Of a DNA stretch of 64,000 nt, positions 1 to 32,664 are shown in pieces. The translations under genes and the position numbers were made by a program. The number at the start of each line of letters is the position of its first letter. Within the stretch, counting starts at the first letter, position 1. The notes beneath the pieces were generated by a model, which was given only the letters and a program-made list of their open reading frames with translations, had not been told where the DNA came from and made no database searches. Source of the DNA: an uncultured Candidatus Saccharibacteria bacterium (GTDB lineage: Bacteria > Patescibacteriota > Minisyncoccia > Phycocordibacterales > UBA12088); contig CAYPKR010000001.1 of the NCBI GenBank assembly GCA_964411375.1, positions 358,629 to 422,628 of the forward strand, written 5' to 3'.

Positions 1-1259
1 TCGGCGGTTTCATCGTTGGCGGCTTTCTATTCTTCGTTCTCTTCAAAGGCACCAACCCACTGCAAGATGCTGGTTCAGTCACTATTTGGGGGACGTTTTC
101 AGGGGCACAAATGACCAATTCTCTCCAAACCATCCAGAAAAAAACGAGCGGGCTCGCAAGTGTAACCTACCAAGAAAAAGATCCGCGCACGTTTAAAGAC
201 ACCATTCTTGAAGCACTTGCCGCTGGGAAAGGTCCCGATCTCATTCTTCTCAATCTCGACGATATTCTATCCTACCGGGATCGAATTTTATTCATTCCAT
301 ATACTTCCTACAGCGAACGTTCGTTCCGCGACACATTTTTTGATGACGCAGGGACATTGCTATTCCCGGACGGTATTGCGGGCATACCATTTTCGTACGA
401 TCCGATCGTAATGTATTTCAACCGCGATCGATTTGCTTCTGCAGGAATCGCAAAGCCGCCGGAATATTGGGATGAAATGTTGACCTTGGTGCCAAAACTC
501 ACTAAGATCGATGACAATCAAAACGTACTCCAAAGTGGTCTTGCATTTGGCGAATCGGCAAATGTCGATCATTACAAAGAAATCCTCTCACTCCTTATTT
601 TGCAGGCAGGTTCTCCGATAACACAGGTGCAGACAAATGGTTCCGTCTCTTCTTCGCTTAATAAAAATATCGAAGGGGGAAATGAACGTCCTGGAAACGC
701 GGCGCTCCGCTTCTTTACGGAATTTTCGAATCCAATAAAATCAGTCTACTCATGGAATCGTGCGCTCCCGAGTGCACGGCAAATGTTCCTCTCGGGAGAT
801 TTAGCAATCTACTTTGGGTATGCGAGCGAATATCCTGATCTTCGCGCTGCAAATCCAAACTTGAATTTTGATCTCGCAAGCGTACCGCAATCGCGCACCG
901 CGAAGCGCCGGAGTTCGTACGGACAGATGACTGTGTTTGCGATTCCAAAACTTTCCAAAAATCCACGAGGCGCTCTGATTGCCGCTCAAATCCTTTCAAC
1001 AAACACTGCTGAGCAAGCATTTATAAAAACAACCAAGTTGCCGCCGGTTCGGAGAGATCTTCTCTCGGTTGCACAAACTGATGCATATCTAAGTGTCTTA
1101 TATGACTCAGCAATTATCGGTCGCGGATGGTTAGATCCAGGTCCAAGCGACAGTCTCCCTGTTTTCGCGCGTATGATCGATCAAGTAACTTCTGGTTCCA
1201 AAACCGTTGAAGATTCTGTAGCAGAAGGGGAAGCAGGGCTCGCAAAATTGTTTAAATGA
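1..1259 (+). CDS. ABC-transporter family-1 solute-binding protein (5' end cut by window edge)
   Basis: The frame is open from position 3 with no upstream stop. There is an N-terminal TM/signal-like stretch GGFIVGGFLFFVLF, then an ITIWG-type beginning and a DYxxxL/PDLIL pattern typical of family-1 solute-binding proteins. Confidence 0.55.
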   Translation, partial: GGFIVGGFLFFVLFKGTNPLQDAGSVTIWGTFSGAQMTNSLQTIQKKTSGLASVTYQEKDPRTFKDTILEALAAGKGPDLILLNLDDILSYRDRILFIPYTSYSERSFRDTFFDDAGTLLFPDGIAGIPFSYDPIVMYFNRDRFASAGIAKPPEYWDEMLTLVPKLTKIDDNQNVLQSGLAFGESANVDHYKEILSLLILQAGSPITQVQTNGSVSSSLNKNIEGGNERPGNAALRFFTEFSNPIKSVYSWNRALPSARQMFLSGDLAIYFGYASEYPDLRAANPNLNFDLASVPQSRTAKRRSSYGQMTVFAIPKLSKNPRGALIAAQILSTNTAEQAFIKTTKLPPVRRDLLSVAQTDAYLSVLYDSAIIGRGWLDPGPSDSLPVFARMIDQVTSGSKTVEDSVAEGEAGLAKLFK

Positions 1260-3691: not shown

Positions 3692-3970
3692 ATGGGATTT
3701 CCTACTTCCGTATCGGAATTTATGAATCGGGTTGATGCCGCAATCATCAACCCGATTTTGGCATTACTCTTTACTGCAGGCATGCTGTACTTCCTCTGGG
3801 GCGGATTCCAGTTTATTGTCGGCGCAGCAGAACCATCAAAGCGCATTGAAGGGAAGCAGCACATGCTATGGGGTGTTATTGGTATGTTCGTAATGTTTTC
3901 GGTCTACGTCATTCTTCGAGTCGGACTTACGACATTTGACATAACGCCAGCACCAGGGTTGCCGCTCTAA
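3692..3970 (+). CDS. small two-TM pilin-like protein, array member 7 (no signal peptide)
   Basis: 92 aa with a diverged version of the same core (LWGGFQFIVGAAEPSKRIEGKQHMLWG). Confidence 0.45.
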   Translation: MGFPTSVSEFMNRVDAAIINPILALLFTAGMLYFLWGGFQFIVGAAEPSKRIEGKQHMLWGVIGMFVMFSVYVILRVGLTTFDITPAPGLPL

Positions 3971-3998
3971 AAATTCGCCCATTTCTCCAAAAGAAAAA

Positions 3999-4083: not shown

Positions 4084-5325
4084 CTAACTTCTCTTCACCT
4101 GGATATGTATCTCCGCGGTGGGAGAGGTGTTTATAGGGCTTTTGGCGTACTTGAAGGTGAGACAATGAGCGTCTCTGCCTTCTCGTGTCCATGGCCTAGC
4201 TTTCCACCAAGGAATCCAGTCGACCGTAGTCGATGTCCACCGCTTCACTCCGATTTCCCAAGCCGCGATGGCTGGATCGGAATCCCAAGTGACAGATAGC
4301 CCGGGATTAAAGCAGAACTCCCTTTGTCCTCCTTTCTTGAGTGGTCCGGTACGTAAGTCTGAATCGGGGGTCTGCAACGTGACCTCTTGTCCCCGGATAA
4401 CCGGCTTCGTGAGGCTCTCTCCGAGATTTCTCACCAGGTTGGCACCCGGAACTGTTGGCAGGTGGATGTATCCCGAAGGTCCAGGCTTTGTCCCTTCGAT
4501 GATGGTGATCCTGTTCACGTCATCTGCTGTCGCATGTTGCTTCAGGATTCTGACGTTCGCACTCTCACCTGAACCACCGATCACATCGCCGACTTCATAG
4601 TCACCGAAGTGAAGTTGGCCGTCATCTCCGAGCGCACAGGGGCTTAATCCTGTTTTCGGATCGACTGCACAAACAGTCCTCCAACCCCAGAACAATTGAG
4701 CTGCTGCCACAAGAAGAATAATGGCGAGCATACCGACTGCAAATCGCCTTGCTTTAGGAATCAAATCCGCAGCGATAAGGGCGATAACCGTGGCAACAAT
4801 TGCTGCGGGATTTTGCTGGTACCAGAAGAGTAAATTTCTTCCGAACAGGGAAAATATCGCCCCAGCGAATATCACTCCCAGGAGGCATGCAAGAAATGCA
4901 GTTCCTCGACGAGGTGTTACACCTTGTTCCGCAAATCCACCTCTGATGGCGGAGATAAGAAATAAGAGTGCTATCACTCCGCCTCCTATCCACATCCCGT
5001 ATTCTCTTGCGAAGTTCTGGGTAGTGGCGAGGGAGGGAATGTATGGGGTTATATGACCCCACCAATACCAGGAGGCGGCAGCAAGGATACTGAAGAGTCC
5101 AAACCAACCGATTGTACTGAATTTCCTCCTTGGCCGGTCTTGTGTCTCCGCGGGATGCGTGACAATAGTTTGGGTCGTTGTTCCCGCCCTTCTCCTTCTC
5201 GGAGGCGGGGGAGCTGGCGCTGCACCGGTTCCTACCGGTGCAGCGTCTGCGGTTGCAGCAGTCGTCGTTACTGCTCCTTCTTCCGGTCTCGACACTGTCG
5301 CCGAGTTCCTTGTTATCCTTGGCAT
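4084..5325 (-). CDS. membrane protein with a Pro/Ala-rich N-terminus, about 5 TM helices and a C-terminal soluble domain (possible NfeD-like partner of the SPFH protein)
   Basis: 413 aa lying in a high-GC island directly downstream of the SPFH gene (16-nt gap). The membrane-plus-C-terminal-beta-rich layout recalls NfeD/YuaF proteins, but I see no recognizable motif. Confidence 0.4.
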   Translation of the reverse strand: MPRITRNSATVSRPEEGAVTTTAATADAAPVGTGAAPAPPPPRRRRAGTTTQTIVTHPAETQDRPRRKFSTIGWFGLFSILAAASWYWWGHITPYIPSLATTQNFAREYGMWIGGGVIALLFLISAIRGGFAEQGVTPRRGTAFLACLLGVIFAGAIFSLFGRNLLFWYQQNPAAIVATVIALIAADLIPKARRFAVGMLAIILLVAAAQLFWGWRTVCAVDPKTGLSPCALGDDGQLHFGDYEVGDVIGGSGESANVRILKQHATADDVNRITIIEGTKPGPSGYIHLPTVPGANLVRNLGESLTKPVIRGQEVTLQTPDSDLRTGPLKKGGQREFCFNPGLSVTWDSDPAIAAWEIGVKRWTSTTVDWIPWWKARPWTREGRDAHCLTFKYAKSPINTSPTAEIHIQVKRS

Positions 5326-5340
5326 CCTCTCTTCCCTTGC

Positions 5341-6654
5341 TTACGGTGAGTTGCCCTCCGCTGGTGGCGGTGGGGAGTGGTCGGTGTTTGCAGAACCAGA
5401 ATTAGCCGGTGTACCCCTAAAGATCGCACCTGCAAGTCCTGCCATTTCCTCGATACCCCTTGCTCCGAAGAAAAAGGTAGCCTTATCTCCGAGCGCTTTA
5501 GTGGTTTCGAGCCCTACGGCGATGCGAGATACATCGTCCAGAGAACCATCAGCTTGTGTTAAACCAGCCTTGATGCCCTCCAGTCGTGCAGTGCTCGCAG
5601 CACCGTCACCTTCGCCTTCCCTCGTTCGCTTAACCCTGTCTGCTTCAGCAGCCAGAACCGTAGCTCGTGCCGCCGCAACCGCCTGAGCGGGCCTCTGGAG
5701 CTGAGTATTCAGCTCATGTGACAGACCAATTGCTTTGATCGCTCCCTGAGTTATTTTTGTACCCCAGGTTTTAGAACGATCTTGCAGTCGAGCGAGGATT
5801 TGATCGCTGAACTCCCTCACCCTGACCATCACTTCCGCGAGCGTATGTGAAGGCAAGAGTTCAGTCAGTGTACGAGTGACCACGTCTTCGAGCAGCCGTT
5901 TTGCTGTGTCGAGATCACGAAGCTCTCGTACAAAGACTCGAGGATTCAGTATCTGAAAGGCAAATATAGCAGATACCTCCTGAGTCACACGCTGCGCAAG
6001 CGGGTCGGGATTGTTTGCATCCCCACCTTGCGCAAATGTGATTCGGAAGACCGGCCTTCTGCCTGGCGGGACGGGAACCCTGTCCTCGTTTCGTACCAGA
6101 AATTCTGGTTCATCCGGCACCTCCTTTTGGATTTCTCCGCTCGGAAAGGTTATTAACGAGCAGAGTCCATAGGGAAGAAATACCGGACCGCTCGTAACGT
6201 TCATGATTGGACGATTGAGCAGGAGTACGACCCCCACTTCATCCGGACCAACGGTGATAACCGAGAGCCCGTCTTCGTCTATCGTGAAGAAGCTGGCAAG
6301 TATATAAGCCAGCACCAAGAGACTCGTAAGAATGCTTGACCAGAGATGGTTATACCCCTGCATATACTGGGCGAGTCGGTGAGGAATAACGTAGAGGGTG
6401 AGATAGACAGCACCGCAAACGAGAACGATCGCGATAAGCGACCATACGACTCTGCGGATAGTCTCGCCGAATCCCGGCGCACCCTCATTTCCGTTTTGGA
6501 TGGGGGAAGGAGCTGGTGGAGTTCTTCGACGCGCACGCATTTTTAGTCCGTAGCGCACGATGACCCCCAAGAATGAGATAGTTACCAAGAAGAAGATTCC
6601 ACCAAAGACGAGATTGCCTGCTCCAAAGGAGTCGACAAGCTGATTGGTGTCCAT
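5341..6654 (-). CDS. SPFH/band-7 (stomatin/prohibitin/HflK-C-like) membrane protein
   Basis: 437 aa with an N-terminal TM region, a core segment (AQRVTQEVSAIFAFQILNPRVFVRELRDLDTAKRLLEDVVTRTL...) and an Ala-rich helix (QAVAAARATVLAAEADRVKRTREGE) typical of SPFH domains. GC is about 57-60%. Confidence 0.65.
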   Translation of the reverse strand: MDTNQLVDSFGAGNLVFGGIFFLVTISFLGVIVRYGLKMRARRRTPPAPSPIQNGNEGAPGFGETIRRVVWSLIAIVLVCGAVYLTLYVIPHRLAQYMQGYNHLWSSILTSLLVLAYILASFFTIDEDGLSVITVGPDEVGVVLLLNRPIMNVTSGPVFLPYGLCSLITFPSGEIQKEVPDEPEFLVRNEDRVPVPPGRRPVFRITFAQGGDANNPDPLAQRVTQEVSAIFAFQILNPRVFVRELRDLDTAKRLLEDVVTRTLTELLPSHTLAEVMVRVREFSDQILARLQDRSKTWGTKITQGAIKAIGLSHELNTQLQRPAQAVAAARATVLAAEADRVKRTREGEGDGAASTARLEGIKAGLTQADGSLDDVSRIAVGLETTKALGDKATFFFGARGIEEMAGLAGAIFRGTPANSGSANTDHSPPPPAEGNSP

Positions 6655-6767: not shown

Positions 6768-7988
6768 ATGGCTCTACTAGAGGGGAAATGGCGTTTGATT
6801 GCTACAATAGCCGCATCCATGAACTGGTGTAAAACTGCCCTACAACGCATGCCGATTGAGGTATTTGTCCTCGGTATCCCATCATTTTTTCTCATAGTTG
6901 GAGGAATTGTATATCGACTATTTTTTATGGCCGGTTCGGATGTAAACACGATCTTTACTACCTTCGCGGCACAGTCAATTGGTGGCGCGTGGTTTTGGAT
7001 GGCGTTTCTCGCCATCATTTGTTGGCTTATCTTGAGAAGTGGCAGAATGATCAATCGTTTTTTGGCGGAACATGATTCAACCGAAGCATCACTTCGATCG
7101 GAATTCCCGAGTCTTCAAAAAAAAATCGGTATGCTGTGGGGAAGCGCCGGATTCATTTTGGCGCTGACCGCACTTTGCTCGATTGCAGTCGCGCTCTCTA
7201 TTACCGCGCTGTTTCATACCGCATCAGCAGCACGGACGATTTATTTTTCACACACACTCTCCGAGATCGAATATGGAGTCTTTGGAGCATATCCACATTT
7301 TGCTATCATCGAATTTTTCGAACGATTTCCATCACTCGATTACTTTATTGTGAATGGATACAACGGACTTTTTGTGTGTGTATCATTTACGTTTTTGCTT
7401 TCACTCGCAACATCGACCCGAATCTTCCGAAGGTACGTACTCGCGTTTTTTATTACTTTCGGCATCGCACTTCCAATTTGGTTTATTTTTCCTCTAGTCG
7501 CACCGCTTGAACTACATGTCGATAATGTATTTCGACAATCCCAATCATCCGCTGTCGTTGCCGCACTTACTGAGTACAATGCTGAACCACTTCCACCAGC
7601 ATCGGAAATGTATCGCAAACAACTTGAAAAATTATGGATTGCACCAGACGGCGATTGGCTTGCGGTCAGTGCGTTTCCAAGCATGCATGCGGGGTGGGCA
7701 CTTATCACCATCATTACGTTATTTTCAATCGATACATTACTTGGACTTATATTTGTACCGACTTTTATTTTCTGCATTATCGGAACGGTGTATACGCTGA
7801 ACCATTATGTTTCCGATGTTGCTGCCGGTTTCTTGGTAGGGATACTTGCGTTTTGGATTGCGGAGCGCGTACTTCGATTCGAGGAAAAATATCGAAGTGA
7901 CGGAGGAAATTTCTTTCTCGCCGCAACGTTGATGCAAACAGATTTAAAGGATCTGTGGAGAAAGGTAGGGAGGTTTTTGAAGGTGTAG
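6768..7988 (+). CDS. PAP2-superfamily integral membrane protein (phosphatase / IPC-synthase-like)
   Basis: 406 aa and polytopic. It carries the motifs FPSMHAGWA (PSGH-like) and LNHYVSDVAAG (H-x3-D) of the PAP2 fold. The start codon is uncertain. Confidence 0.5.
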   Translation: MALLEGKWRLIATIAASMNWCKTALQRMPIEVFVLGIPSFFLIVGGIVYRLFFMAGSDVNTIFTTFAAQSIGGAWFWMAFLAIICWLILRSGRMINRFLAEHDSTEASLRSEFPSLQKKIGMLWGSAGFILALTALCSIAVALSITALFHTASAARTIYFSHTLSEIEYGVFGAYPHFAIIEFFERFPSLDYFIVNGYNGLFVCVSFTFLLSLATSTRIFRRYVLAFFITFGIALPIWFIFPLVAPLELHVDNVFRQSQSSAVVAALTEYNAEPLPPASEMYRKQLEKLWIAPDGDWLAVSAFPSMHAGWALITIITLFSIDTLLGLIFVPTFIFCIIGTVYTLNHYVSDVAAGFLVGILAFWIAERVLRFEEKYRSDGGNFFLAATLMQTDLKDLWRKVGRFLKV

Positions 7989-8032
7989 GGATTATTGGCA
8001 TACAGAGCTTTTTTAGGTAAGATTCAAAACAT

Positions 8033-8105
8033 CCGCCCATAGCTCAGTTGGTAGAGCGACTCCCTCTTAAGGAGACGGTCCAAGGTTCGAGTCCTTGTGG
8101 GCGGA
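8033..8105 (+). tRNA. tRNA-Lys (anticodon CTT)
   Basis: Hand-folded cloverleaf: acceptor CCGCCCA/TGGGCGG, D-stem GCTC/GAGC, anticodon loop CTCTTAA, T-arm CAAGG-TTCGAGT-CCTTG, discriminator A. No CCA is encoded. Confidence 0.8.
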
Positions 8106-8150
8106 CAAGCGTTAAGAAATCCTGATCTACGTCAGGATTTTAGCTTGTCC
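8103..8150. terminator. nested perfect hairpin overlapping the tRNA-Lys 3' end
   Basis: Outer stem GGACAAGC/GCTTGTCC and inner stem AAATCCTGA-TCTACG-TCAGGATTT. The left arm begins inside the tRNA acceptor 3' strand. Confidence 0.55.
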
Positions 8151-8260
8151 GAGCCGGAGCAATGTTGCGTAGCAACTGCGAGGCGGGATCGCGAGTGCTT
8201 AGCATTTTGTGCGTAGCTACAAAATACTTAGCAACTCGTGATGACTTTTTAAAAGACGGC

Positions 8261-8384
8261 AATCGGTCACCGATAATTTTGCGTAGCAAAATTTCGTCGA
8301 CCCCAGCTCGCCGTCGCTTCGCGACATGGCTGCGCTTTTCGATTCCCAACACACTCAAAGCAGCTTGAGTGCTCTCTCGGCACT
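8261..8384 (+). ncRNA. structured non-coding element, copy A (44-nt conserved module, GCGTAGC-loop hairpin, GTCGC hairpin, inverted pseudo-copy of the tRNA-Leu 3' half)
   Basis: 8261-8304 is identical to 9116-9159. Hairpin AATTTT-GCGTAGC-AAAATT; hairpin GTCGC-TTC-GCGAC. TTTTCGATTCCCAAC is a T-loop copy, CACTCAA-AGCAGC-TTGAGTG is an inserted hairpin, and CTCTCGGCAC is a plus-orientation copy of the tRNA-Leu 3' acceptor. Confidence 0.5.
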
Positions 8385-8409
8385 CTTTACTCAACTTCGT
8401 TTCGTTCGG

Positions 8410-8496
8410 TGCCGAGAGTGGGAATCGAACCCACACGAGCGTTTATAGCCCTCGGGATTTTAAGTCCCGTATGTCTACCAATTCCATCATCTCGGC
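8410..8496 (-). tRNA. tRNA-Leu (anticodon TAA), long variable arm
   Basis: The reverse complement folds with acceptor GCCGAGA/TCTCGGC, anticodon stem CGGGA/TCCCG with loop CTTAAAA, a long variable arm, T-arm GTGGG-TTCGATT-CCCAC and discriminator A. Confidence 0.8.
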
Positions 8497-8503
8497 GTAC
8501 TCG

Positions 8504-9097
8504 CTATTGTAAATTAGTACCCCAATATTGTCTCGATGCAAGTATTGCAATAAATCCGCACCCTATGAATGAATAGATAGGATAGGCTAAGTTATAGGCT
8601 GCGTACGAGGAAACTGCAAGAATCCCGCAGAGTGCGGAAAGGGTGATGAGTGCCCAAGGTAGCAACGCCTCCGACTCGGGCATTCGGTATGTTTTAGTGA
8701 TCGTTGGGATGGTAAAAAATGCATCGCCGATGATTGAAATATAAATTGCAAGTACTGGGTCGTTGGTATACACCCATGCGGCTATTGCCATGATTCCTAT
8801 TAGGAACGCAAGTGTATCAATCCAGTGGTACGCCGTAAGATATTTTTTGTAATAAACCGAGACGCCGAGTGTTAGTAGGCAATTAAAGGTGAATATGGTT
8901 GGAATGACTATCGACCAATCTGCGCCTTTTGAAAACTGCGCAAGAGCCGGAATTGCAGAAAGGAGTGACCAACCTATTTGTGAATAAATATGTGGACGAG
9001 TAGTGCCGTATATAACGCTCCGCAAATAGGGAACCGCCGAAGAAAGCGCAATGCACGTTGCAGCTATTCCGAGTAGTGCGTGGGAATTGATAGGCAT
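8504..9097 (-). CDS. polytopic membrane protein (hypothetical, about 6 TM)
   Basis: 197 aa and hydrophobic throughout. It sits between tRNA-Leu and the second copy of the 44-nt module. Confidence 0.5.
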   Translation of the reverse strand: MPINSHALLGIAATCIALSSAVPYLRSVIYGTTRPHIYSQIGWSLLSAIPALAQFSKGADWSIVIPTIFTFNCLLTLGVSVYYKKYLTAYHWIDTLAFLIGIMAIAAWVYTNDPVLAIYISIIGDAFFTIPTITKTYRMPESEALLPWALITLSALCGILAVSSYAAYNLAYPIYSFIGCGFIAILASRQYWGTNLQ

Positions 9098-9115
9098 TGG
9101 TTTCTTAATTTTAGG

Positions 9116-9320
9116 AATCGGTCACCGATAATTTTGCGTAGCAAAATTTCGTCGACCCCGCCTTACTCATCCATAAGCCAGTCCACGCAGGATCGGTCCT
9201 TACAGGACCAGTATACCGTGCGGATTTTTTCTTCGCCTTCGGCTCGAAAAAAGTCTCGCACGGTTTTCGATTCCCGCACGAACGCTCCCCCGGAGCGTTC
9301 TCGGGCCCCAACTTCGTTGG
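9116..9320 (+). ncRNA. structured non-coding element, copy B (44-nt module + variable hairpins + T-loop copy of tRNA-Cys + CCC-triloop hairpin)
   Basis: 9116-9159 is identical to 8261-8304. There is a GGTCC-TTACA-GGACC hairpin; TTTTCGATTCCCGC is a plus-orientation copy of the tRNA-Cys T-loop/T-stem; and there is a GAACGCTCC-CCC-GGAGCGTTC hairpin. Confidence 0.5.
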
Positions 9321-9392
9321 AGTCCACGGCGGGAATCGAACCCGCGTATAAGGGTTTTGCAGACCCATGCCTTACCACTTGGCCACGTGGAC
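9321..9392 (-). tRNA. tRNA-Cys (anticodon GCA)
   Basis: The reverse complement folds with acceptor GTCCACG/CGTGGAC, anticodon stem TGGGT/ACCCT (a 27-43 U-U pair) with loop CTGCAAA, T-arm GCGGG-TTCGATT-CCCGC and discriminator T. Confidence 0.75.
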
Positions 9393-9397
9393 AATTT

Positions 9398-9715
9398 TTA
9401 TTGCAGTGCCTCGGCGCTGGTATCCGTCATCGGAATATCCGGCGCAATGACAAAATCGATGAAGGGAAGTCCGCGGAGCGCGCTCTTCTCCTTTAAATAT
9501 TCACGAAATTCACTTCGCTTCCGCTTCAAAAAATCAAGCGCTGCAGCTTCGTGATCTTTTGGATACACCGAGCAAAAAATCTTTGCCTGCTTTAAATCTT
9601 CCGAAAGATACACGCCGGTTACGGTTATGAGCGACTGACGATTGGATTCTATATTCACAAATGTCGCAGCAAGATGCTGAAGCTCTTCCCTCGTGCGTGC
9701 AGTACTGTCCTCCAT
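9398..9715 (-). CDS. rbfA: ribosome-binding factor A
   Basis: 105 aa carrying the RbfA core ITVTGVYLSEDLKQAKIFCSVY. It lies immediately downstream of infB, the conserved infB-rbfA order. Confidence 0.75.
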   Translation of the reverse strand: MEDSTARTREELQHLAATFVNIESNRQSLITVTGVYLSEDLKQAKIFCSVYPKDHEAAALDFLKRKRSEFREYLKEKSALRGLPFIDFVIAPDIPMTDTSAEALQ

Positions 9716-11895: not shown

Positions 11896-13080
11896 ATGGC
11901 AGAAGAAAGCAAGTCTCGAATATATCTCGACCATGCCGCATCTACTCCGGTTTTGCCGGAAGTGATGGACAGGATGGCACCATATTGGAATGATGTCTTT
12001 GCGAACGCGGGAGCGATTCATTCGGATGGAGTCAAAGCAAAGCAGGCTTTGGAGGATGCACGCGAAGTATGCGCAAAATCGCTTGGGGTCAAGTCGAGCG
12101 ATATTATTTTTACTTCCGGCGGAACCGAAGGAAACAACCTTGCAATTTTCGGACTTGCAGAATCCTTGCTCGACAGCGGACTCGCCTATGGCGATATGCA
12201 TTTCATAACGGGCGCGATCGAGCACGCATCGGTGCTTGATTGTTTTAAAGTACTTGAGAAAAAAGGTGCGAGCTTTACGATCGTACCGGTTGGCGAAGAA
12301 GGACTCATCTATCCAGAAGATGTTGCCGCGGCAATCACAGAAAAGACGGTGCTTGTTTCAATAATGTATGCAAATTCCGAAATCGGCACCATCCAGCCGA
12401 TTCGTGATATTAGCGAAGCGATCAAAAAGAAAATCGCTGGATCGGCGCAGAAAATATATTTTCATACCGACGCATGCCAAGCGCCCGTGTATCTTTCGTG
12501 CCACGCAGATACACTCGGCGTTGATTTGATGACTATCGATGCACAAAAACTCTACGGACCAAAAGGATCTGGTGCGTTGTATATAAAACAGGGGACGCCG
12601 ATTGCGCCAATTATGCGTGGCGGAAACCAAGAAAGAAATTTGCGTCCCGGTACACCAGTCGTCATGCTCGCTGTGGGACTTGCAGAAGCGTTGAAAATCG
12701 CAGATCTGAATCGAACAGAAGAAAGCGAGCGTGTACTTGAACTCCGTGACTATTTTATCGATGAGGTTCTCAAAGAAATTCCAACTGCCCACGTAAATGG
12801 TTCTCGCAAAAATCGACTTCCAAACAATGCAAATTTTTCATTTCCTGGGAAGCTGGCAGAAATGATCGTGCTCGGTCTTGATCAGAAGGGAATTTCTGCA
12901 TCAACAAGAAGCGCGTGTCACATTAATGAAAAAGGCGGTTCGCATGTCGTACGCGCACTCGGACTTGGGGAAGATTATGCAACAAGCGCAGTCCGCTTCT
13001 CGCTCGGACGATCAACAACGAAAGAAATGATTGATGCGACTGTTGCAGCGCTGAAAGAGACTATTGACAAAAATAAATAA
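11896..13080 (+). CDS. cysteine desulfurase (class-V aminotransferase, IscS/NifS-like)
   Basis: 394 aa with LDHAASTP, a PLP-lysine region DAQKLYGPKGSGALYIK, and an active-site Cys loop STRSACHINEKG. Confidence 0.8.
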   Translation: MAEESKSRIYLDHAASTPVLPEVMDRMAPYWNDVFANAGAIHSDGVKAKQALEDAREVCAKSLGVKSSDIIFTSGGTEGNNLAIFGLAESLLDSGLAYGDMHFITGAIEHASVLDCFKVLEKKGASFTIVPVGEEGLIYPEDVAAAITEKTVLVSIMYANSEIGTIQPIRDISEAIKKKIAGSAQKIYFHTDACQAPVYLSCHADTLGVDLMTIDAQKLYGPKGSGALYIKQGTPIAPIMRGGNQERNLRPGTPVVMLAVGLAEALKIADLNRTEESERVLELRDYFIDEVLKEIPTAHVNGSRKNRLPNNANFSFPGKLAEMIVLGLDQKGISASTRSACHINEKGGSHVVRALGLGEDYATSAVRFSLGRSTTKEMIDATVAALKETIDKNK

Positions 13081-13683: not shown

Positions 13684-14544
13684 ATGAATCTTGAGGATTT
13701 GTCAAAAACACAGTTGGTATTACTCACCCTCTTGGTGAGTTTTATCACCTCGATCGCAACCGGTATCATGGCGGTCGCGCTTTTGACATCGCAAAATCAG
13801 CAGAGTCCGATTACGCGCACGATCAACAACGTTATCGAGCACACGATTGAAAAAGTCGTGCCGAGCGATACAAAAACAAAAGAGGCGCCTGCGGTAACGA
13901 GCCAAGATCAGATTACTAATGCGATTGCGGGGGCGAGCAAATCAATCGTTCGCATCTACACGACCCTTGATCCAACCGCATCAACCACTAACATTTCAGA
14001 AAAAGGCGTGTTCCATGGAATCGGGGTACTTGTTTCAAGTGATGGACTCTTCCTTGTTCCAGATTCACTTGCAATCAAGGGACGCACATACACAGTTGAA
14101 ACGGGAAATGGTATCCAAACTCCCGCAACGATTGTTGCAGAAGGAAGAGGGGATGTTGCGCTTATGAAGATGACTCTCGCAACTAACACACCCACTCTAT
14201 CAAGTGCAACGCTCGGCACACCAGCCTCGCTCAAACTTGGTCAGACAGTGGTTGGAGTTGGCGGAGAATCGCGCACATCGGTATCGGTCGGAACTATTTC
14301 GAGTCTCGTATCAGGAGAAGGAGATAGTATCAAAGCGATCGAAGCTGAAACTGCCGGAGTTTCCACGCTCGGAAGCGTCCTCATTTCATCTTCTGGATTG
14401 GCGCTCGGACTTTACTTACCAGATTCAAAAACATATGCGCCGATTTCTTCTGATCTGGTAAAAAGCTTGCAGAAACCCGTAACAGAAAAGCCGCAAGGAA
14501 CGTCATCACAAGCAGCGAGCGGCAGTACGGCCAACACCCCATAA
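13684..14544 (+). CDS. membrane-anchored trypsin-like (S1/HtrA-fold) domain protein, probably catalytically inactive
   Basis: 286 aa with an N-terminal TM helix and HtrA-like strands (SIVRIYTT..., GDVALMKM ~ DIALLKI) but no GNSGG/GDSG serine motif. A TGGTACAAT extended -10 sits about 30 nt upstream. Confidence 0.4.
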
Positions 14545-18066: not shown

Positions 18067-18191
18067 AATACCCTCAATATATTCCTCTCTTCTTTGTATG
18101 TCCAAAATATTTTGAGAGGGAGTTTCGACCCCTACAGGGTCAGTCCAGGTTGTATGATCTTTTCTTCCTTCGGTCGAAAAGCTCGACAACC

Positions 18192-18242
18192 TTTTCGAAT
18201 CCCTCACGAAAGTTCCCCCGGAGCTTTCTCTGTGCCACCAAA
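18192..18242 (+). ncRNA. inverted pseudo-copy of the tRNA-Tyr 3' half with a CCC-triloop hairpin insert
   Basis: TTCGAATCCCTC is a plus-orientation copy of the tRNA-Tyr T-loop/T-stem, followed by the GAAAGTTCC-CCC-GGAGCTTTC hairpin and GTGCCACCA, which resembles the acceptor 3'-CCA. Confidence 0.45.
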
Positions 18243-18272
18243 CAAAAAATCCCTTTCAAGGGATTTTTTGTT
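18243..18272. repeat. CAAACAAAAAATCCC-TTTCAA-GGGATTTTTTGTTTG perfect palindrome abutting the tRNA-Tyr 3' CCA
   Basis: 15-bp perfect stem ending 1 nt before the tRNA-Tyr 3' end. Confidence 0.6.
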
Positions 18273-18358
18273 TGGTGCGCCGGGAGGGATTCGAACCCCC
18301 GTAGGCATAAGCCGCTTGGTTTACAGCCAAGTGCGATTGACCACTCCGCCACCGACGC
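18273..18358 (-). tRNA. tRNA-Tyr (anticodon GTA), long variable arm, CCA encoded
   Basis: The reverse complement folds with acceptor GCGTCGG/CCGGCGC (a G-U pair), anticodon stem CTTGG/CCAAG with loop CTGTAAA, a long variable arm, T-arm GGGGG-TTCGAAT-CCCTC and ACCA. Confidence 0.75.
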
Positions 18359-18408: not shown

Positions 18409-18924
18409 TTACTTACAAATCGACGTTGAAGAGGCTATATGTCCCACGGTCGAACTTGAGGTTCCTACAATGCAGATGATACCTCTGCCAAATGCCCCGC
18501 TGCCCACTTCGAGAAATGCAAGAACAGAATAATCATCTGTCTTCGGAGAACTGCCTCCGCCGCTTGAAGAAATGCCATATTGGCACACGCCTGTTGAAGA
18601 TAGAGTACAAACTGTTGTTCCGTTCGGATCCTTAAATTTGGAGAGTTGGGTCATATCAATTCCATTTATTGTTCCCGTGCACGAATTTATATTCGAGCTT
18701 GCCGCGGTACAGCCTTGAAGCGCTGGACCCGTAGCTCCGGTTGCGAGATTGAGTACGCGCCCAATCTGTTCAAGATCAGAAATACGTTGGGCATCACGCG
18801 CCTTGGTCCTGGCGCTATTCAAGGATGCAAGAACAACTGATGAGAGAATGCCGATGATTGCGATGACCACGAGAAGTTCGATAAGCGTGAATCCATAACT
18901 CCTCCTTATTTGGGGGCTGCTCAT
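18409..18924 (-). CDS. type IV pilin / pseudopilin (class III signal peptide)
   Basis: N-terminus MSSPQIRRSYG|FTLIELLVVIAIIGIL with the prepilin-peptidase site G-F and a Glu at +5. The remainder is Ser/Thr/Gly-rich with 6 Cys. Confidence 0.7.
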   Translation of the reverse strand: MSSPQIRRSYGFTLIELLVVIAIIGILSSVVLASLNSARTKARDAQRISDLEQIGRVLNLATGATGPALQGCTAASSNINSCTGTINGIDMTQLSKFKDPNGTTVCTLSSTGVCQYGISSSGGGSSPKTDDYSVLAFLEVGSGAFGRGIICIVGTSSSTVGHIASSTSICK

Positions 18925-19075
18925 ACTGATGTAGTTCAAATTAATTACAACAAATTTATCATAGCATCCTTCAAGGAAGCGGCGCAGGGTTCCGAGGCCG
19001 AGGTGGGGAAATCTTTCCCCGCGTTCTGTGTATAAAAACAGCCATATCGTCGCATTTTATCGTTATACTAATTTC

Positions 19076-20053
19076 ATGAAGTATCTTGCATGGCTCCTTG
19101 CCTTGCTCTCGTTTTCGATTATCCCGACGGCCGTGTTTGCCGCTGGTGGACTTGTACCGTGCGATGGACCGGAGTGTGATATCTGTTCGTTTGTTGCGCT
19201 CGGACAAAAAATCCTCAATTTCCTCGTCTATGCTTCGGTCCTTATTGCGACCATCATGTTCACGTATGCAGGGATTGAAATGCTCATTCATTCCGACAAT
19301 TCCGGAGCGATCTCGCAAGCGCGACATACGTTTATGAATGTACTGATTGGACTCGTCGCAATTCTCGCCGCGTGGCTCATCATCGATACAGTTATGCGCG
19401 TTCTCTTTACCTACAACAATGGTTTTGAAGGAACGGCAGGATACGGAAAGCCTTGGGAGGATATTTTGTGCGCGTATCAATCGGAACCGCCTCCACCCAC
19501 TACCGGAGGCGGTGGAACGACTGCTACCGCAGGAGGGGGTAGCGCGACCGCGGGAGGTGGAGGTGGATCATGCACAGTACAAACGGATGGTGCGTGTAGT
19601 GTGAGTGCGCTGACACCAGTCTTCGATACCGTAGCAAGCCAAGCATCGCAAATCTGCAATGCAGAAAGCGGCGGAAATCCGAACAGTGAAAGTGCTGTGG
19701 ATCGCATTCTCGCTGGCGGACAGGCATTTTCAGTCGGGCTATTTCAAATAAACATGACGCAACATGATCTCACTGCTCCGGCATGCAAGGCGCTAAACGG
19801 CGGTAATCCAATGGATTGCTCCCAATTAGATACTTCTGTAATAGGTCCACCGCTCACTCCACCTGCATTTACCGGCTCAAATCGAAATGCCCGCATTACT
19901 AATACTGCTTTGTACAATGCATGTAGTGCAGCGCTCAAAAATCCTGCGTGCGCAATACAGACTGCCAAACAAATTTACATTGCTGGCGGAGGTCCTTCGC
20001 GCCCAAATTCATGGGCACAGTGGTCGACTGCTGCAACCTGTCATCTTCCGTAA
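19076..20053 (+). CDS. fusion protein: N-terminal VirB2/TrbC-like two-TM pilin domain, Gly/Thr linker, C-terminal lytic-transglycosylase/lysozyme-like domain
   Basis: The start is taken at MKYLAWLL. It has a signal peptide, then PCDGPECDICS, two TM helices (the same layout as array gene 1276) and a GGGTTATAGGG linker. The C-terminal CNAESGGNPNSES...GLFQIN matches the E-S...GL(F/M)QI signature of SLT/Rpf-type transglycosylases. Confidence 0.5.
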   Translation: MKYLAWLLALLSFSIIPTAVFAAGGLVPCDGPECDICSFVALGQKILNFLVYASVLIATIMFTYAGIEMLIHSDNSGAISQARHTFMNVLIGLVAILAAWLIIDTVMRVLFTYNNGFEGTAGYGKPWEDILCAYQSEPPPPTTGGGGTTATAGGGSATAGGGGGSCTVQTDGACSVSALTPVFDTVASQASQICNAESGGNPNSESAVDRILAGGQAFSVGLFQINMTQHDLTAPACKALNGGNPMDCSQLDTSVIGPPLTPPAFTGSNRNARITNTALYNACSAALKNPACAIQTAKQIYIAGGGPSRPNSWAQWSTAATCHLP

Positions 20054-20084
20054 TTTTTGCTCGTAGCATAGTATTAGTACAACC

Positions 20085-20666
20085 ATGAAAATATTCCTCA
20101 AATTTTTTCTCGGCATAGGGGTGATCGGGCTCATTGGAGTTTCCATTCTCTATTTCTTTTTTACGAAACAGCAACCAATCGAGGAGCCAACAACTGGAGA
20201 GGCAACGATAAACGGATTTCCAACAAGTGGCGGTGGAACAATTATCGGAGGAGGATCGGCGGGGAGCACAACAACCACTGGAGAGATTCCTCCCGGCAAG
20301 CGCGCTATTCAGACCCGTGGATCTGACAAGATTGTGGTAAATGATTTCCTCGCAAGTTCAACACCGCATCAGGACGAATATATCGGCGAATATTATTTAC
20401 TGAATGAATCGACGACGACACCGCCATTCCAAATTATTTACACGGCGAAAGATCAGTTTTTCCAGATTTCGATTGAAAAAGCTCCGCTCGGAATTGTCCG
20501 AAAAGATGCAGAAACATTTCTTCTTACCTCGCTCGGTATAAACCAACAGACGGCGTGCTTACTGAAACATTCAGTCGGAGTTCCTAATTGGCTCGATACG
20601 CATTATTCGGGAAAGAATGTGGAATTTAGTTTTTGCCCAGGTACTGTATTGCTTCCAGAAATTTAA
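20085..20666 (+). CDS. membrane-anchored hypothetical protein with Gly/Thr-rich linker
   Basis: 193 aa with an N-terminal TM helix, a GGGTIIGGGSAGSTTTTG linker and a beta-rich C-terminus. Confidence 0.4.
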   Translation: MKIFLKFFLGIGVIGLIGVSILYFFFTKQQPIEEPTTGEATINGFPTSGGGTIIGGGSAGSTTTTGEIPPGKRAIQTRGSDKIVVNDFLASSTPHQDEYIGEYYLLNESTTTPPFQIIYTAKDQFFQISIEKAPLGIVRKDAETFLLTSLGINQQTACLLKHSVGVPNWLDTHYSGKNVEFSFCPGTVLLPEI

Positions 20667-20678
20667 TTTATCCTCGAT

Positions 20679-21617
20679 ATGAAATCAGTAATCCGATTTT
20701 TTACAGTGACGGTAGTTGCATTTATGCCGTTTGTCGTTTTGTATGCCGCGGGTGGACTCGTACCGTGCGACGGACCAGAGTGTGATCTATGTTCACTTGT
20801 CGCGCTCGCTCAGAAAATAATGAATTTCCTGATTTTCATTGCGGTCATTATTGCGACCATCATGTTTGTCTACGCGGGATTCACGATGCTCGTGAATGCA
20901 GACAATGCAGGAAAGCGAAGTGAGGGGCGGAAAATTTTTGTGAATGTACTGATTGGACTCGTCGCAATTCTCGCCGCGTGGCTCATCATCGATACGGTCA
21001 TGAAAGTTCTCTTCGTCAATTCTGAACTCAACAACGATCGGGTCGGGCGCCCGTGGCAGGATATTTTGTGCGAGTTTCAATCCGTAAAGCCGCCACCCGA
21101 TGGGGGTGGAACTGCAACTGCAGGAACAGCTACCGCAGGCACCGCGACTGCTGGCGGTACCGCAACAGCAGGAGGCGGAACCGCAGGTGGTAGTGGTAGC
21201 GGAGCTCCATTGCATCAGGATGCGGCGTTCGCTCTTCTTAATGCAAGTAACATCGCAATACATAGCTCAGGTGATTGTACCGATCCGAATATTTCCACCT
21301 GTACATCTCTTGAAGGAATGCGGCAGGGAACTGTTGCCGGCATCATCAATCTATCGAATAGCGTCTGTGGCTCGGATGGGGGTTGTGTCGTAGTGACCGG
21401 AGGTACGGAAGTAGGGCATGAACCAGGAGTCTGTTCTCATTCAAATGGATGCAAGGCAGACGTTGCATTTAATCCTGCGGTCGATGCATATATCACGACC
21501 TTTGTTCGAATAGGCGACCGGACTGACGGTGCGGCGCAGTATCAGGATAGGTGTGGAAATATCTATGCCCGAGAGTCAGACCATTGGGACATCTCTTTCC
21601 CGAACGCATGCTCCTAA
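20679..21617 (+). CDS. fusion protein: N-terminal pilin-like two-TM domain (paralog of 19076) + (GTATA)n linker + Cys-rich C-terminal domain of unknown function
   Basis: The N-terminal 130 aa is about 75% identical to 19076, including a 55-nt identical DNA tract (20941-20995 = 19335-19389). The C-terminal domain is unrelated and has 12 Cys. Confidence 0.5.
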   Translation: MKSVIRFFTVTVVAFMPFVVLYAAGGLVPCDGPECDLCSLVALAQKIMNFLIFIAVIIATIMFVYAGFTMLVNADNAGKRSEGRKIFVNVLIGLVAILAAWLIIDTVMKVLFVNSELNNDRVGRPWQDILCEFQSVKPPPDGGGTATAGTATAGTATAGGTATAGGGTAGGSGSGAPLHQDAAFALLNASNIAIHSSGDCTDPNISTCTSLEGMRQGTVAGIINLSNSVCGSDGGCVVVTGGTEVGHEPGVCSHSNGCKADVAFNPAVDAYITTFVRIGDRTDGAAQYQDRCGNIYARESDHWDISFPNACS

Positions 21618-22365: not shown

Positions 22366-22432
22366 ATGACTCTAGTATATCGTACCGAAAGGGTAAGAGG
22401 AAACATTTACATGTTGGCGGACTATGAGGAAC

Positions 22433-22560
22433 TCGGTCACGGATAATTGTTGCTACGCACAATTTCCGCGACCCGTGAAAAGGTGTCCGTACACCTTTTC
22501 ACCACCGTCGCTATGCGACATGGCTCCGTCTTTCGATTCTGAAGGAGGTCTGCGCAGGCA
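22433..22560 (+). ncRNA. structured non-coding element, copy C (diverged homolog of copies A/B, with T-loop copy of tRNA-Trp)
   Basis: CGGTCACGGATAATTGTTGCTACGCACAATTTCCGCGACCCG aligns to the 44-nt module; the loop GCGTAGC becomes GCTACGC while the stem is kept. It has an inserted 12-bp hairpin, a GTCGC-TAT-GCGAC hairpin conserved with copy A, TTTCGATTCTGAA (a tRNA-Trp T-loop copy) and a GTCTGCG-CAGG-CAGAC hairpin. Confidence 0.5.
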
Positions 22561-22569
22561 GACTTCTGT

Positions 22570-22617
22570 GGCCCGCAAATGTAAAATCCCTCAAAAGGGA
22601 TTTTACATTTGCGGGCC
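22570..22617. repeat. 21-bp perfect palindrome GGCCCGCAAATGTAAAATCCC-TCAAAA-GGGATTTTACATTTGCGGGCC overlapping the tRNA-Trp 3' end
   Basis: The right arm includes the tRNA-Trp acceptor 3' strand (GGGCCC). Confidence 0.6.
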
Positions 22618-22682
22618 CACTCAGAATCGAACTGAGAACGTCGGTTTTGGAGACCGAAATTTTACCGTTAAACTATAGGCCC
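22612..22682 (-). tRNA. tRNA-Trp (anticodon CCA)
   Basis: The reverse complement folds with acceptor GGGCCTA/TGGGCCC (a U-G pair), anticodon stem TCGGT/ACCGA with loop CTCCAAA, T-arm CTCAG-TTCGATT-CTGAG and discriminator G. Confidence 0.75.
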
Positions 22683-32094: not shown

Positions 32095-32664
32095 TTAATT
32101 TCCGCCTACGCAAACAGTCGTCTGACTGCCCCACCAATTGCCGTTTGCGCCTGTATATTTGCCGACACAATAATGCGGCTGGGAGCCAATTTCATAATAC
32201 GCGCCGCCGCTGTTGTAATAGCCCTTGTCTCCGGTTGCGTGGGAAAAACTGCCCGCATCCGCCAGACGAATCATGAATCCGTACGTTTGGTAGTTGTCGC
32301 CGGAATCTGAATCGTAATAATACCGATATACGTTTGCGCCGGGATTCGGATCGATCGGTACTTTGAGGTAGGGAGCGAGGTCGGTAACCAATCCGCACCA
32401 CGCAGCATTTCCTCCGCATGCTTGCGTCACATCAGTCTGGGCGTTGTTACGCTTCGGGTAATAACCGTACGTGTTCACATAGAGAGCGAGTGCCGTTCGT
32501 ATCTGTTTTACGTCTGATAATCGAGTGGCGTCCTGTGTTTTGGTACGCGCAGATGCAAGGGAAGCGAGAATGACGCCTGCAAGCAGTCCAATAATCGCGA
32601 TGACGACAAGAAGTTCGATGAGGGTAAAAGCGCGTTGTCGGGCGCGCTGTTCGGAGGTGACCAT
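32095..32664 (-). CDS. type IV pilin (class III signal peptide)
   Basis: MVTSEQRARQRA|FTLIELLVVIAIIGLLAG. Ala rather than Gly sits at -1. The globular part is Tyr/Gly/Asn-rich with 4 Cys. Confidence 0.65.
   Translation of the reverse strand: MVTSEQRARQRAFTLIELLVVIAIIGLLAGVILASLASARTKTQDATRLSDVKQIRTALALYVNTYGYYPKRNNAQTDVTQACGGNAAWCGLVTDLAPYLKVPIDPNPGANVYRYYYDSDSGDNYQTYGFMIRLADAGSFSHATGDKGYYNSGGAYYEIGSQPHYCVGKYTGANGNWWGSQTTVCVGGN

Follow-up and report, generated by a model that had tools for sequence, protein, structure and literature searches.

The 64,000-nucleotide (nt) stretch of DNA analysed here, called the window throughout, belongs to an uncultured Candidatus Saccharibacteria bacterium (contig CAYPKR010000001.1, positions 358,629 to 422,628) and carries an identical 44-mer at two places. 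These two copies are the P3 hairpins of two neighbouring members of one family, separate elements of 100-250 nt that sit directly behind the 3' ends of transfer RNA (tRNA) genes. The elements are probably protein-less, non-autonomous mobile insertions of the Patescibacteria (Candidate Phyla Radiation, CPR) that spread horizontally, a reading favoured because they are dispensable, patchily distributed and carry imported copies of their targets. The family is apparently undescribed so far. Rfam 15 returned tRNAs only above threshold, with the cores of the elements unmatched even at E<=5-10, and full-text literature searches yielded no description of this element.

The 44-mer, AATCGGTCACCGATAATTTTGCGTAGCAAAATTTCGTCGACCCC, lies at 8261-8304 and 9116-9159 on the plus strand and occurs nowhere else in the window with up to three mismatches (chance expectation 0). 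Both copies are followed by TTTTCGATTCCC, at 8336-8347 and 9264-9275, and between them lie tRNA-Leu(taa) (8408-8496, minus strand) and an open reading frame (ORF) of 197 amino acids (aa) encoding a membrane protein (8504-9097, minus strand), all as an earlier note on this DNA had described. The window holds six matches to TTTTCGATTCCC where 0.8 are expected, and a copy with one mismatch stands at 18192-18203, beside tRNA-Tyr. Each TTTTCGATTCCC is the reverse complement of the T-loop and 3' T-stem strand of the adjoining tRNA (inverted repeats I9, 12/12, and I11, 11/11). The tRNAs concerned are on the minus strand, except tRNA-Lys, and the repeats are directly 3' of them. That the 44-mer folds is correct, but its helix is not the A/T stem with a 7-nt loop first described: a perfect 8-bp stem, AATTTTGC/GCAAAATT, closes a 3-nt loop at the tip of P3, a longer hairpin with bulges. 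The structure resides on the minus strand (the sense strand of the tRNA), and the 44-mer as quoted is the antisense. Two further hairpins with GCGTAGC, at 8164-8176 and 8203-8228, do exist; they cap P2 and P3 in a third element, on the plus strand behind tRNA-Lys (8033-8106). The heptamer itself is not enriched across the window (six seen, five expected), and four of the six lie within 1 kb of each other.

Read in the sense of the gene, the elements share one order of parts: the target end (X), a loop or terminator, an anti-acceptor segment, a small conserved hairpin, an anti-T segment, a core and a direct repeat of the target end. The antisense segment (X') is thus split into anti-acceptor and anti-T parts with a sequence-conserved hairpin between them, and it covers the last ~20 nt of the target. 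It genuinely complements the tRNA 3' end and does not duplicate the 5' strands of the tRNA. Complementarity of at least 10/12 to the tRNA's own positions T54-65 is found in 82 of 176 downstream regions, as against 2 of 161 upstream controls. A terminator-like hairpin with a T-run stands between tRNA and core in 49 of 79 elements (62%).

Element A, behind tRNA-Leu(taa) (called by ARAGORN; Rfam tRNA 61.3 bits), illustrates this layout on the minus strand. Its anti-acceptor, GTGCCGAGAG (8374-8383), is complementary at 10/10 positions to 8409-8418 (inverted repeat I20), that is, to the 3' acceptor strand and discriminator of tRNA-Leu. The small conserved hairpin, P1.1, follows at 8351-8371, and hairpins of similar sequence (GCAAGCAAACUGCUUUGCUUGC type) occupy the same position in many loci. 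The anti-T segment, TGGGAATCGAA (8338-8348), lies within the TTTTCGATTCCC motif and complements the T-loop and 3' T-stem (I11, 11/11 to 8419-8429); it also serves as the 5' strand of helix P1. The core, a type A three-way junction of P1, P2 and P3, spans 8257-8348, with P2 at 8305-8335 and P3 the 44-mer itself (8261-8304). It scores 78 bits (E 3e-20) with covariance model R1, which was built from 31 copies (alignment A1).

The type A core is defined by its fold. In P1 the anti-T segment is base-paired to the beginning of the direct repeat, the joining segment J1/2 reads GAAAG, and P2 has an invariant GGA/GAG internal loop. P3 contains an invariant G·U pair and an invariant bulged A below a variable apex (UAC, UU, GAAA, GCGACGGC and others), so that GCGTAGC is not a conserved feature. 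Across 125 distinct copies, pairing is seen in 94.1% of cells, whereas shuffles reach 74.9% and slid controls 35-50%. Double changes occur at 25 of the 27 pairs, and the observed values lie beyond those of all 500 shuffles. The fold is specific to one strand. The gene-sense strand is the more stable for all 102 distinct P3 hairpins (102/102; mean folding-energy difference -6.1 kcal/mol), and P3 has 164 G·U pairs on this strand and 8 on the other, an apparent conservation of P3 that is inflated, G·U pairs included, by the retrieval of most copies with a pattern that fixes part of P3. Compensatory change maintains P2 and P3, and it does so on a single strand. That strand in its folded form, whether RNA or single-stranded DNA (ssDNA), must therefore matter for the persistence of the elements. 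The same asymmetry speaks against the plus-strand small RNA that the earlier note had considered.

Other cores occur between the same flanks. The type B core consists of a long U6/A6 hairpin, GUACUG and a GNRA hairpin, and 16 of its 21 pairs show double changes across nine copies (alignment A3). At least two further core types exist. A type C core lies behind tRNA-Glu and tRNA-Trp of locus L001 with the same antisense and direct-repeat flanks, and a type D core, often found upstream of a type A core, reads GTTCGGCG..GCGAAAAAGTGTTTACATTTTTTCGC..GGAGGAGGCC..GGCCGATATCC. The two types together are found at L001 1211-1339 on the minus strand, at L001 ~1990-2200 and 13830-14070, and in L013, L016 and L107.

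Several known kinds of structured sequence were considered for the elements and rejected. A tRNA- or transfer-messenger RNA (tmRNA)-like gene on the plus strand, hinted at by TTCGATTCCC and an acceptor-like 3' strand, lacks a 5' partner strand and a T-stem, and the structure is on the other strand. A degenerate tandem copy of the tRNA with the core inserted in its T-loop disagrees with the anti-T segment being a true complement (AATCGAA for the loop TTCGATT), with an anti-acceptor that spans the discriminator, and with the same design at the protein gene topA. The core motifs of hammerhead, hairpin, twister, pistol and hatchet ribozymes are absent on inspection, with no Rfam matches. A box C/D or kink-turn guide RNA does not fit a P2 loop that is a symmetric GGA/GAG and not the 3-nt bulge of a kink-turn, nor the lack of C and D boxes.

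Five of the seven tRNAs in the window bear an element; behind tRNA-Leu(caa) and tRNA-Gln there is only a terminator or nothing. R1 finds four matches, at 8257-8348 (-), 9112-9174 (-), 22427-22496 (-) and 8152-8244 (+). The second of these is element A' (43.5 bits, E 4e-10), a type A core without P2 whose P3 is the other 44-mer (9116-9159). It forms the distal half of a composite behind tRNA-Cys(gca) (9318-9392, minus strand; ARAGORN, Rfam) and sits 15 nt upstream of the ATG of the 197-aa ORF. The proximal half is element B (9178-9317, minus strand), a type B core recognized from its sequence, from I9 (12/12), from the type B alignment A3 and from an orthologous type B element behind tRNA-Cys in locus L002. 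It comprises small hairpins at 9280-9300 and 9308-9320, an anti-T segment at 9266-9277, the long U6/A6 hairpin at 9215-9263, AUACUG at 9209-9214, a GNRA-like hairpin at 9195-9209 and a degenerate direct copy of the tRNA-Cys 3' end at 9178-9195. Elements A and A' therefore share P3 and differ outside it, A having P2 and A' lacking it and following a type B core. The P3 of the L002 orthologue of A is 5-6 positions off the window P3, whereas the two window copies, 855 nt apart, are identical. The simplest account is that the P3 hairpins of these neighbours were recently homogenised locally, by gene conversion, or recently copied.

The remaining elements follow the same plan. Element E (8107-8255, plus strand; R1 25.5 bits at 8152-8244) lies behind tRNA-Lys(ctt) (8033-8106, plus strand) and converges tail to tail on element A. 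It has a terminator-like hairpin at ~8119-8142 and a type A core with a long P3, to which the GCGTAGC apices belong, and a long-P3 orthologue lies behind tRNA-Lys in L002 (13759-13878). Element C (22427-22610, minus strand; R1 34.9 bits at 22427-22496) lies behind tRNA-Trp (22611-22682, minus strand) and consists of a bidirectional terminator hairpin (22576-22610), an anti-acceptor (22568-22575), a hairpin, an anti-T segment (22532-22542), a P2 region and a P3 that is a diverged 44-mer (22433-22474). Element D (18113-18272, minus strand), behind tRNA-Tyr (18273-18358, minus strand), has a type B core, as judged from its sequence, a 12/12 anti-T match and the type B alignment. Its parts are a terminator hairpin, a partial anti-acceptor, a hairpin at 18209-18229, an anti-T segment at 18194-18205, a long hairpin at 18148-18191, UGGACUG, a small hairpin and a copy of the T-loop and T-stem at 18117-18128. 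Where the terminator is missing, a trailer motif, CC(G/A)AACGAA(G/A)CGAAG, occupies the first bases after the tRNA and is common to the window (8384-8407, 9303-9320) and L002 (11900-11915, 12165-12180, 1165-1180). Four mechanically called ORFs of 68-138 aa, at 8140-8436 (-), 8162-8368 (+), 9080-9496 (+) and 9111-9368 (-), lie wholly over tRNAs and elements and are almost certainly not genes.

The earlier suggestion of a dispersed family sited in tRNA trailers was essentially right, and it holds well beyond the window. A scan of metagenomes with a degenerate P3 pattern matched at least 120 stretches, and R1 finds 160 copies among ~120 metagenome and genome loci, with a maximum of five in one 12-kb locus. 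Among the pattern matches listed, 84 of 127 have a tRNA on the same strand within 400 nt upstream, mostly ~100-125 nt away, and the element-bearing tRNAs represent 31 anticodons. Further targets are the 3' ends of tmRNA genes and the 3' end of the topA coding sequence. In one topA case the names given to the relatives of its TopA place the host in Kaiserbacteria/Parcubacteria; the family therefore spans distant CPR lineages. The IF-2 gene adjoining the region of the 44-mers retrieves genomes of Candidatus Saccharibacteria. In L002, whose IF-2 is 67% identical to that of the window, all six tRNAs in 21 kb are followed by such elements on the tRNA-sense strand. Neither viral contigs nor the records of phages and plasmids gave a match, and a phage or plasmid origin was rejected on that basis. 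No conserved neighbouring gene or integrase cluster was found among 630 flanking ORFs (within 2.5 kb); the neighbours cluster as housekeeping genes only, and Pfam scans of the 34 window ORFs show no recombinase or reverse transcriptase. Membership of a larger integrase-bearing island was rejected on these grounds.

Two groups of loci show sequences other than called tRNAs at the target position. In L112 (~5240-5790, minus strand) and L046 (~280-450, plus strand), a tRNA-Glu-like sequence (GGTCTCATCGTCTAA...TAGGACACCAGGTTCTCATCCTGGCAATCCGGG...) has type A cores at its D-loop and T-loop positions, and in L046 an additional small hairpin after the anticodon. No 3' acceptor strand is found to match it and it is not called by ARAGORN; a pseudogene or a tRNA interrupted several times could explain it. 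Elsewhere (L011 ~3930-3975, L071/L092, L115, L121, L105/L127), cores follow a sequence ending ...ACACCGCA, sometimes with GGTTCGAA nearby, which may be another RNA-gene target or a degraded tRNA.

Comparison with close relatives reveals the same sites without elements. Locus L081 carries an element between topA and relA. In seven contigs (L135-141) whose TopA is 95% identical to that of L081, 42 nt separate the two genes, and in L142-146, whose TopA is 85% identical, only 2 nt do; none of these has an element. At the tRNA cluster of the window, L132-134 have RbfA, tRNA-Cys, a 200-aa homologue of the 197-aa ORF, tRNA-Leu, tRNA-Lys and tRNA-Leu in order, with element-free spacers of 1-44 nt, and in L130 and L131, also element-free, tRNA-Cys is directly followed by tRNA-Leu without an ORF of this type. 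The spacers behind tRNAs in element-free close relatives measure 1-52 nt overall. The arrangement of the cluster differs between lineages: the window has tRNA-Lys together with its element in inverted orientation to tRNA-Leu, with a PAP2-family gene adjoining, whereas the Cys, Leu, Lys and Leu genes of L132 are co-linear (window 6768-8106, L002 12290-13730, L132 4594-4886). The rearrangement breakpoints coincide with elements. Short-read contigs of the same strain (RbfA 100% identical) and of a relative with 84% identical IF-2 (L128, L129) stop within ~45 nt after rbfA, exactly where the tRNA-Cys/element region begins (window 9393-9400), which fits repeat-induced assembly breaks.

These relatives bear on the reading, raised in the earlier note, of the 44-mers as attachment (att) sites, attL and attR, of a single insert (8305-9115) containing tRNA-Leu and the membrane-protein gene. 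In its favour, the repeats are exact and direct and surround a rare, accessory-looking ORF; the 197-aa protein has no Pfam family, an exact-protein look-up gave no record, and only three homologues exist among 5.8 billion proteins. The arrangement in L130 and L131, with the tRNAs adjacent and the ORF missing, also agrees with it. However, each 44-mer is the P3 of a complete element on its own tRNA (Leu or Cys), as in the 160 copies of the family, the two elements differ outside P3, and L132-134 have the homologous ORF between tRNA-Cys and tRNA-Leu without 44-mer or element. In L132, tRNA-Cys, the 200-aa homologue, tRNA-Leu and tRNA-Lys stand in the same order without either repeat. The single-insert reading was dropped because each 44-mer sits in the element of its own tRNA and L132 has this order element-free, and it is now hardly credible. 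The 197-aa ORF is ancestral synteny, neither cargo nor part of an element, since its homologue occupies the same place in an element-free relative. What does resemble an att pair is the tRNA 3' end together with the copy of it that follows each P3.

The direct repeat begins at T-loop position C56, immediately after the ...GUGAC of P3 (…GUGAC|CGAAUCC…), and this junction is precise and constant across 31 tRNA types, tmRNA and topA. Its length varies from 5 to >43 nt, and it may reach 29-43+ nt into the trailer; its identity to the tRNA end is complete (19/19) in 26 of 76 cases. Locus L037 has a tandem array of 2.5 whole units. X always pairs 12/12 with the 5' strands of the tRNA, and the direct repeat does so equally well or worse. 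Where X and the direct repeat differ, the antisense agrees with X at seven positions and with the repeat at nine. In window elements A and C and in L063, L082 and L108, the repeat has decayed while the complementarity to the tRNA 3' half remains perfect.

At topA, the upstream copy of the coding tail is in frame and ends with its stop, and the whole tail, stop included, is repeated after P3. The two tails differ in seven codons in L081, all synonymously, and by ~13 synonymous differences and one nonsynonymous in L119; in L089 the downstream copy is frameshifted. In L081 the downstream tail equals the native tail of the empty relative at 20/20 positions, and the in-frame upstream copy differs from it at four. 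The TopA tail reads MMEGTK in every filled allele and MMLGTK in every empty one. Together with the 20/20 identity, this split marks the upstream copy as imported. Past the duplicated tail, L081 has a further ~340 nt (12640-12980) relative to the topA-relA gap of the empty relative, including a GC-rich hairpin, AGAGGCGGCCGCATGGCCGCCTCT.

Alternatively, the copies might be passive repeats that now neither function nor move, left over in decay from larger integrated elements or produced as palindromes are extended at tRNA terminators. In favour of this are the degenerate state of many direct repeats, terminator hairpins that have grown into long perfect palindromes encompassing the end of the tRNA (as in L035), and the lack of an associated enzyme among the 630 flanking ORFs. 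Against this, the junctions are constant over every class of target, P2 and P3 are maintained by compensatory substitutions, a covariation at odds with pure decay, and there are several conserved cores, a filled/empty polymorphism and a foreign flanking copy. Passive origin is therefore very improbable.

If the elements are mobile, their layout suggests how they would move. Insertion would occur at the T-loop of tRNA or tmRNA genes, or at a T-loop-like site near the end of topA. The element would supply a replacement 3' end, X, leaving the gene intact and often followed by the element's own terminator hairpin, and the displaced original end would remain as the direct repeat right after P3. The functional form would be a folded single strand, RNA or ssDNA, in which X pairs with X' to present a duplex image of the target site beside the P2/P3 scaffold. 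A factor encoded elsewhere could use this structure to direct insertion to the T-loop CGA, and spread between genomes would then proceed via flanking homology. The window has genes that would fit DNA uptake, encoding DprA (32777-33646, minus strand), two prepilin-type N-methylation proteins (18409-18939 and 32095-32664, both minus strand) and type IV secretion system (T4SS)-pilin-like proteins (19028-21617, plus strand); such uptake could spread elements by homologous recombination. Insertion may be of the Campbell type: a unit of the order core-X-loop-X', crossing over at the T-loop CGA, would give gene-X-loop-X'-core-original end. This model reproduces the observed layout exactly and resembles the logic of CTX attP(+) and integron attC.

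Established integrative elements offer one comparison. Reportedly, the Williams 2002 classification includes elements with tyrosine integrases whose target is the T-loop sublocation within tRNA and tmRNA genes. In integrative elements of the T-loop class, a replacement 3' end keeps the gene intact and the displaced end becomes a direct repeat of variable length. The elements described here likewise insert at the T-loop, restore the gene, leave a direct repeat of the tRNA end, use tmRNA as well and can carry a foreign copy, and for topA the replacement tail is in frame, as in that class. Unlike them, the elements are only 100-250 nt long, have no ORF, and have no integrase within or among the 630 ORFs up to 2.5 kb away; they also add an antisense copy of the target and a strand-specific covarying core, and occupy dozens of tRNA types in one lineage.

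Integron attC sites and the attP(+) of CTX phage are folded single-strand recombination sites, structured on one strand, in which a hairpin rebuilds the duplex site. Like them, P3 is an imperfect, strand-specific hairpin in which some bases are extrahelical and the apex varies, and the family shares the conservation of structure over sequence and the occurrence of arrays of units (L037). P3 and P1 have no GTTRRRY R/L boxes or dif-like motif, however, and no IntI or Xer is linked; the rebuilt duplex is an image of the target gene end, and the core is a three-way junction.

The likeness to miniature inverted-repeat transposable elements (MITEs), repetitive extragenic palindromes (REPs) and bacterial interspersed mosaic elements (BIMEs), enterobacterial repetitive intergenic consensus (ERIC) sequences, Correia elements and Rickettsia palindromic elements (RPEs) is more general: all are short, non-coding, multi-copy, structured, often co-transcribed with genes and apt to break assemblies. 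A strict MITE or REP identity, the other repeat class that had been suggested, is not supported, for there are no constant terminal inverted repeats, no fixed-length short target duplication and no GTAG-type REP. The antisense segment and the direct repeat are target-derived and differ between copies, and the repeat, always starting from C56, ranges over the lengths given above. In place of the 20-40 nt palindrome with 5' GTAG of REP/BIME, the elements present a ~100-nt three-way junction at gene 3' ends, with a strict site preference for ends with a T-loop-like motif and a sense and an antisense copy of the target in each unit. Group I and other self-splicing tRNA introns differ as well, since the tRNA upstream is complete, there is no Rfam match and a core of ~100 nt is too small. 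The nearest paper concerns group I introns in Patescibacteria, which sit in the anticodon loop, and no group II introns are reported there (PMC13011429).

Another comparison is with the bridge RNA or seekRNA of IS110 and the omega-RNA of TnpB and IscB, non-coding scaffolds fused to target-complementary segments that set the location. By this analogy the split antisense would be a guide, and a recombinase or nuclease encoded in trans would home the element. The 12+8 nt complement does span the insertion point and is fused to a conserved scaffold, it is specific to each target, the protein-coding one included, and the structure is conserved on the transcribed strand. But no recombinase or nuclease lies in or beside the elements, among the flanking or the 34 window ORFs. 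The guides exceed the known ones in length, both segments pair with one and the same strand, guided systems are not known to duplicate 19-43 nt of target, and a terminator often precedes the scaffold. The guide, moreover, fits filled and empty sites equally and so could not tell them apart. A trans-acting factor may exist despite the lack of an adjacent DEDD or serine recombinase, but RNA-programmed insertion of this kind is quite unlikely.

Some observations weigh against horizontal mobility. No recombinase, transposase or reverse transcriptase was found beside the elements or, by Pfam scans, in the 34 window ORFs. The mismatches between X and X' (21 G·U, 14 A·C) show no clear wobble bias, and the conservation of P3 is inflated by the retrieval pattern, as described above. 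Each target needs its own antisense and sense copy, so new target types should not be easily acquired, yet 31 anticodons, tmRNA and topA are occupied. Finally, the window and L002 agree in the subtype at three tRNAs: tRNA-Cys has type B, tRNA-Leu(taa) type A with a short P3 and tRNA-Lys type A with a long P3. In L002 the Leu-taa element has a near-identical 44-mer, and the long-P3 type A element at Lys is followed by a type B element. P3 shows compensatory changes between the two, including a C-G to G-C swap, and where the Leu acceptor reads CUCUCGG in one and CCCCCGG in the other, the antisense segment is altered accordingly. The same subtype at the same tRNA, together with these compensatory changes, fits long vertical retention under selection, possibly for a host function.

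Such a function would make the element a cis-acting part of the tRNA or tmRNA precursor, a processing signal or a folding switch. In one version, a tRNA-like minihelix, made of the anti-strand, the copied 3' end and an orthogonal hairpin, would recruit RNase P, RNase Z or the CCA enzyme for the trailer cut. In the other, a riboswitch-like junction would gate maturation, the 5' strand of P1 pairing either with the downstream T-like strand, with the tRNA folded, or with the tRNA 3' half, with the tRNA misfolded. The strong strand-specific covariation and the invariant junction and internal-loop nucleotides are typical of functional RNA. The element is always co-oriented with the gene and immediately 3' of it, perfect complementarity outlasts the decay of the direct repeat, and several different cores use one anti/copy platform. 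The invariant junction nucleotides, the alternative P1 pairing and the acceptor/T-like helix with an orthogonal hairpin also recall riboswitch junctions and tRNA-like structures such as mascRNA and the viral ones, although the modelled stacked helix resembles these in topology only.

Yet the same elements are dispensable, the tRNAs of close relatives having short spacers and no element, and they also occur at a protein gene, topA, with its coding tail and stop duplicated. The terminator-like hairpin before the core in 62% would limit co-transcription, the direct repeats reach into flanking DNA, whole units form tandem arrays, and one target-end copy is foreign. Unlike riboswitches, the elements lie 3' of tRNAs and not in 5' untranslated regions, the genes downstream are unrelated housekeeping genes on either strand, the DNA flanks are duplicated and no Rfam family matches. 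A host cis-acting RNA is thus unlikely, and the mobile-insertion reading is the one preferred. Tentatively, the family could be a novel, protein-less and self-targeting RNA or ssDNA element for guide-directed insertion, with a reprogrammable split antisense "address" matched to the 3' end of an essential gene (tRNA, tmRNA or topA), a three-way-junction scaffold, T-loop insertion with a spare gene end and a host enzyme or ribozyme as partner, or else a tRNA-maturation switch located on the 3' side.

The elements have practical consequences for the genomes that carry them. Short-read assemblies are broken beside tRNA clusters, spurious ORFs are created, such as those at 8140-8436 (-) and 9080-9496 (+), and the prediction of att sites and genomic islands can be misled. 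CPR/Patescibacteria genomes are only ~1 Mb and strongly reduced, yet in some lineages one or two of these elements stand at most tRNA genes. If they are mobile, they would show non-coding DNA settling in essential single-copy genes by a new route that does not destroy them, bringing a spare 3' end and an antisense image of the site, and they would point to a recombination or RNA-guided activity not known so far that could be programmable. If instead they are functional RNAs, they would constitute a new layer of control over tRNA maturation.

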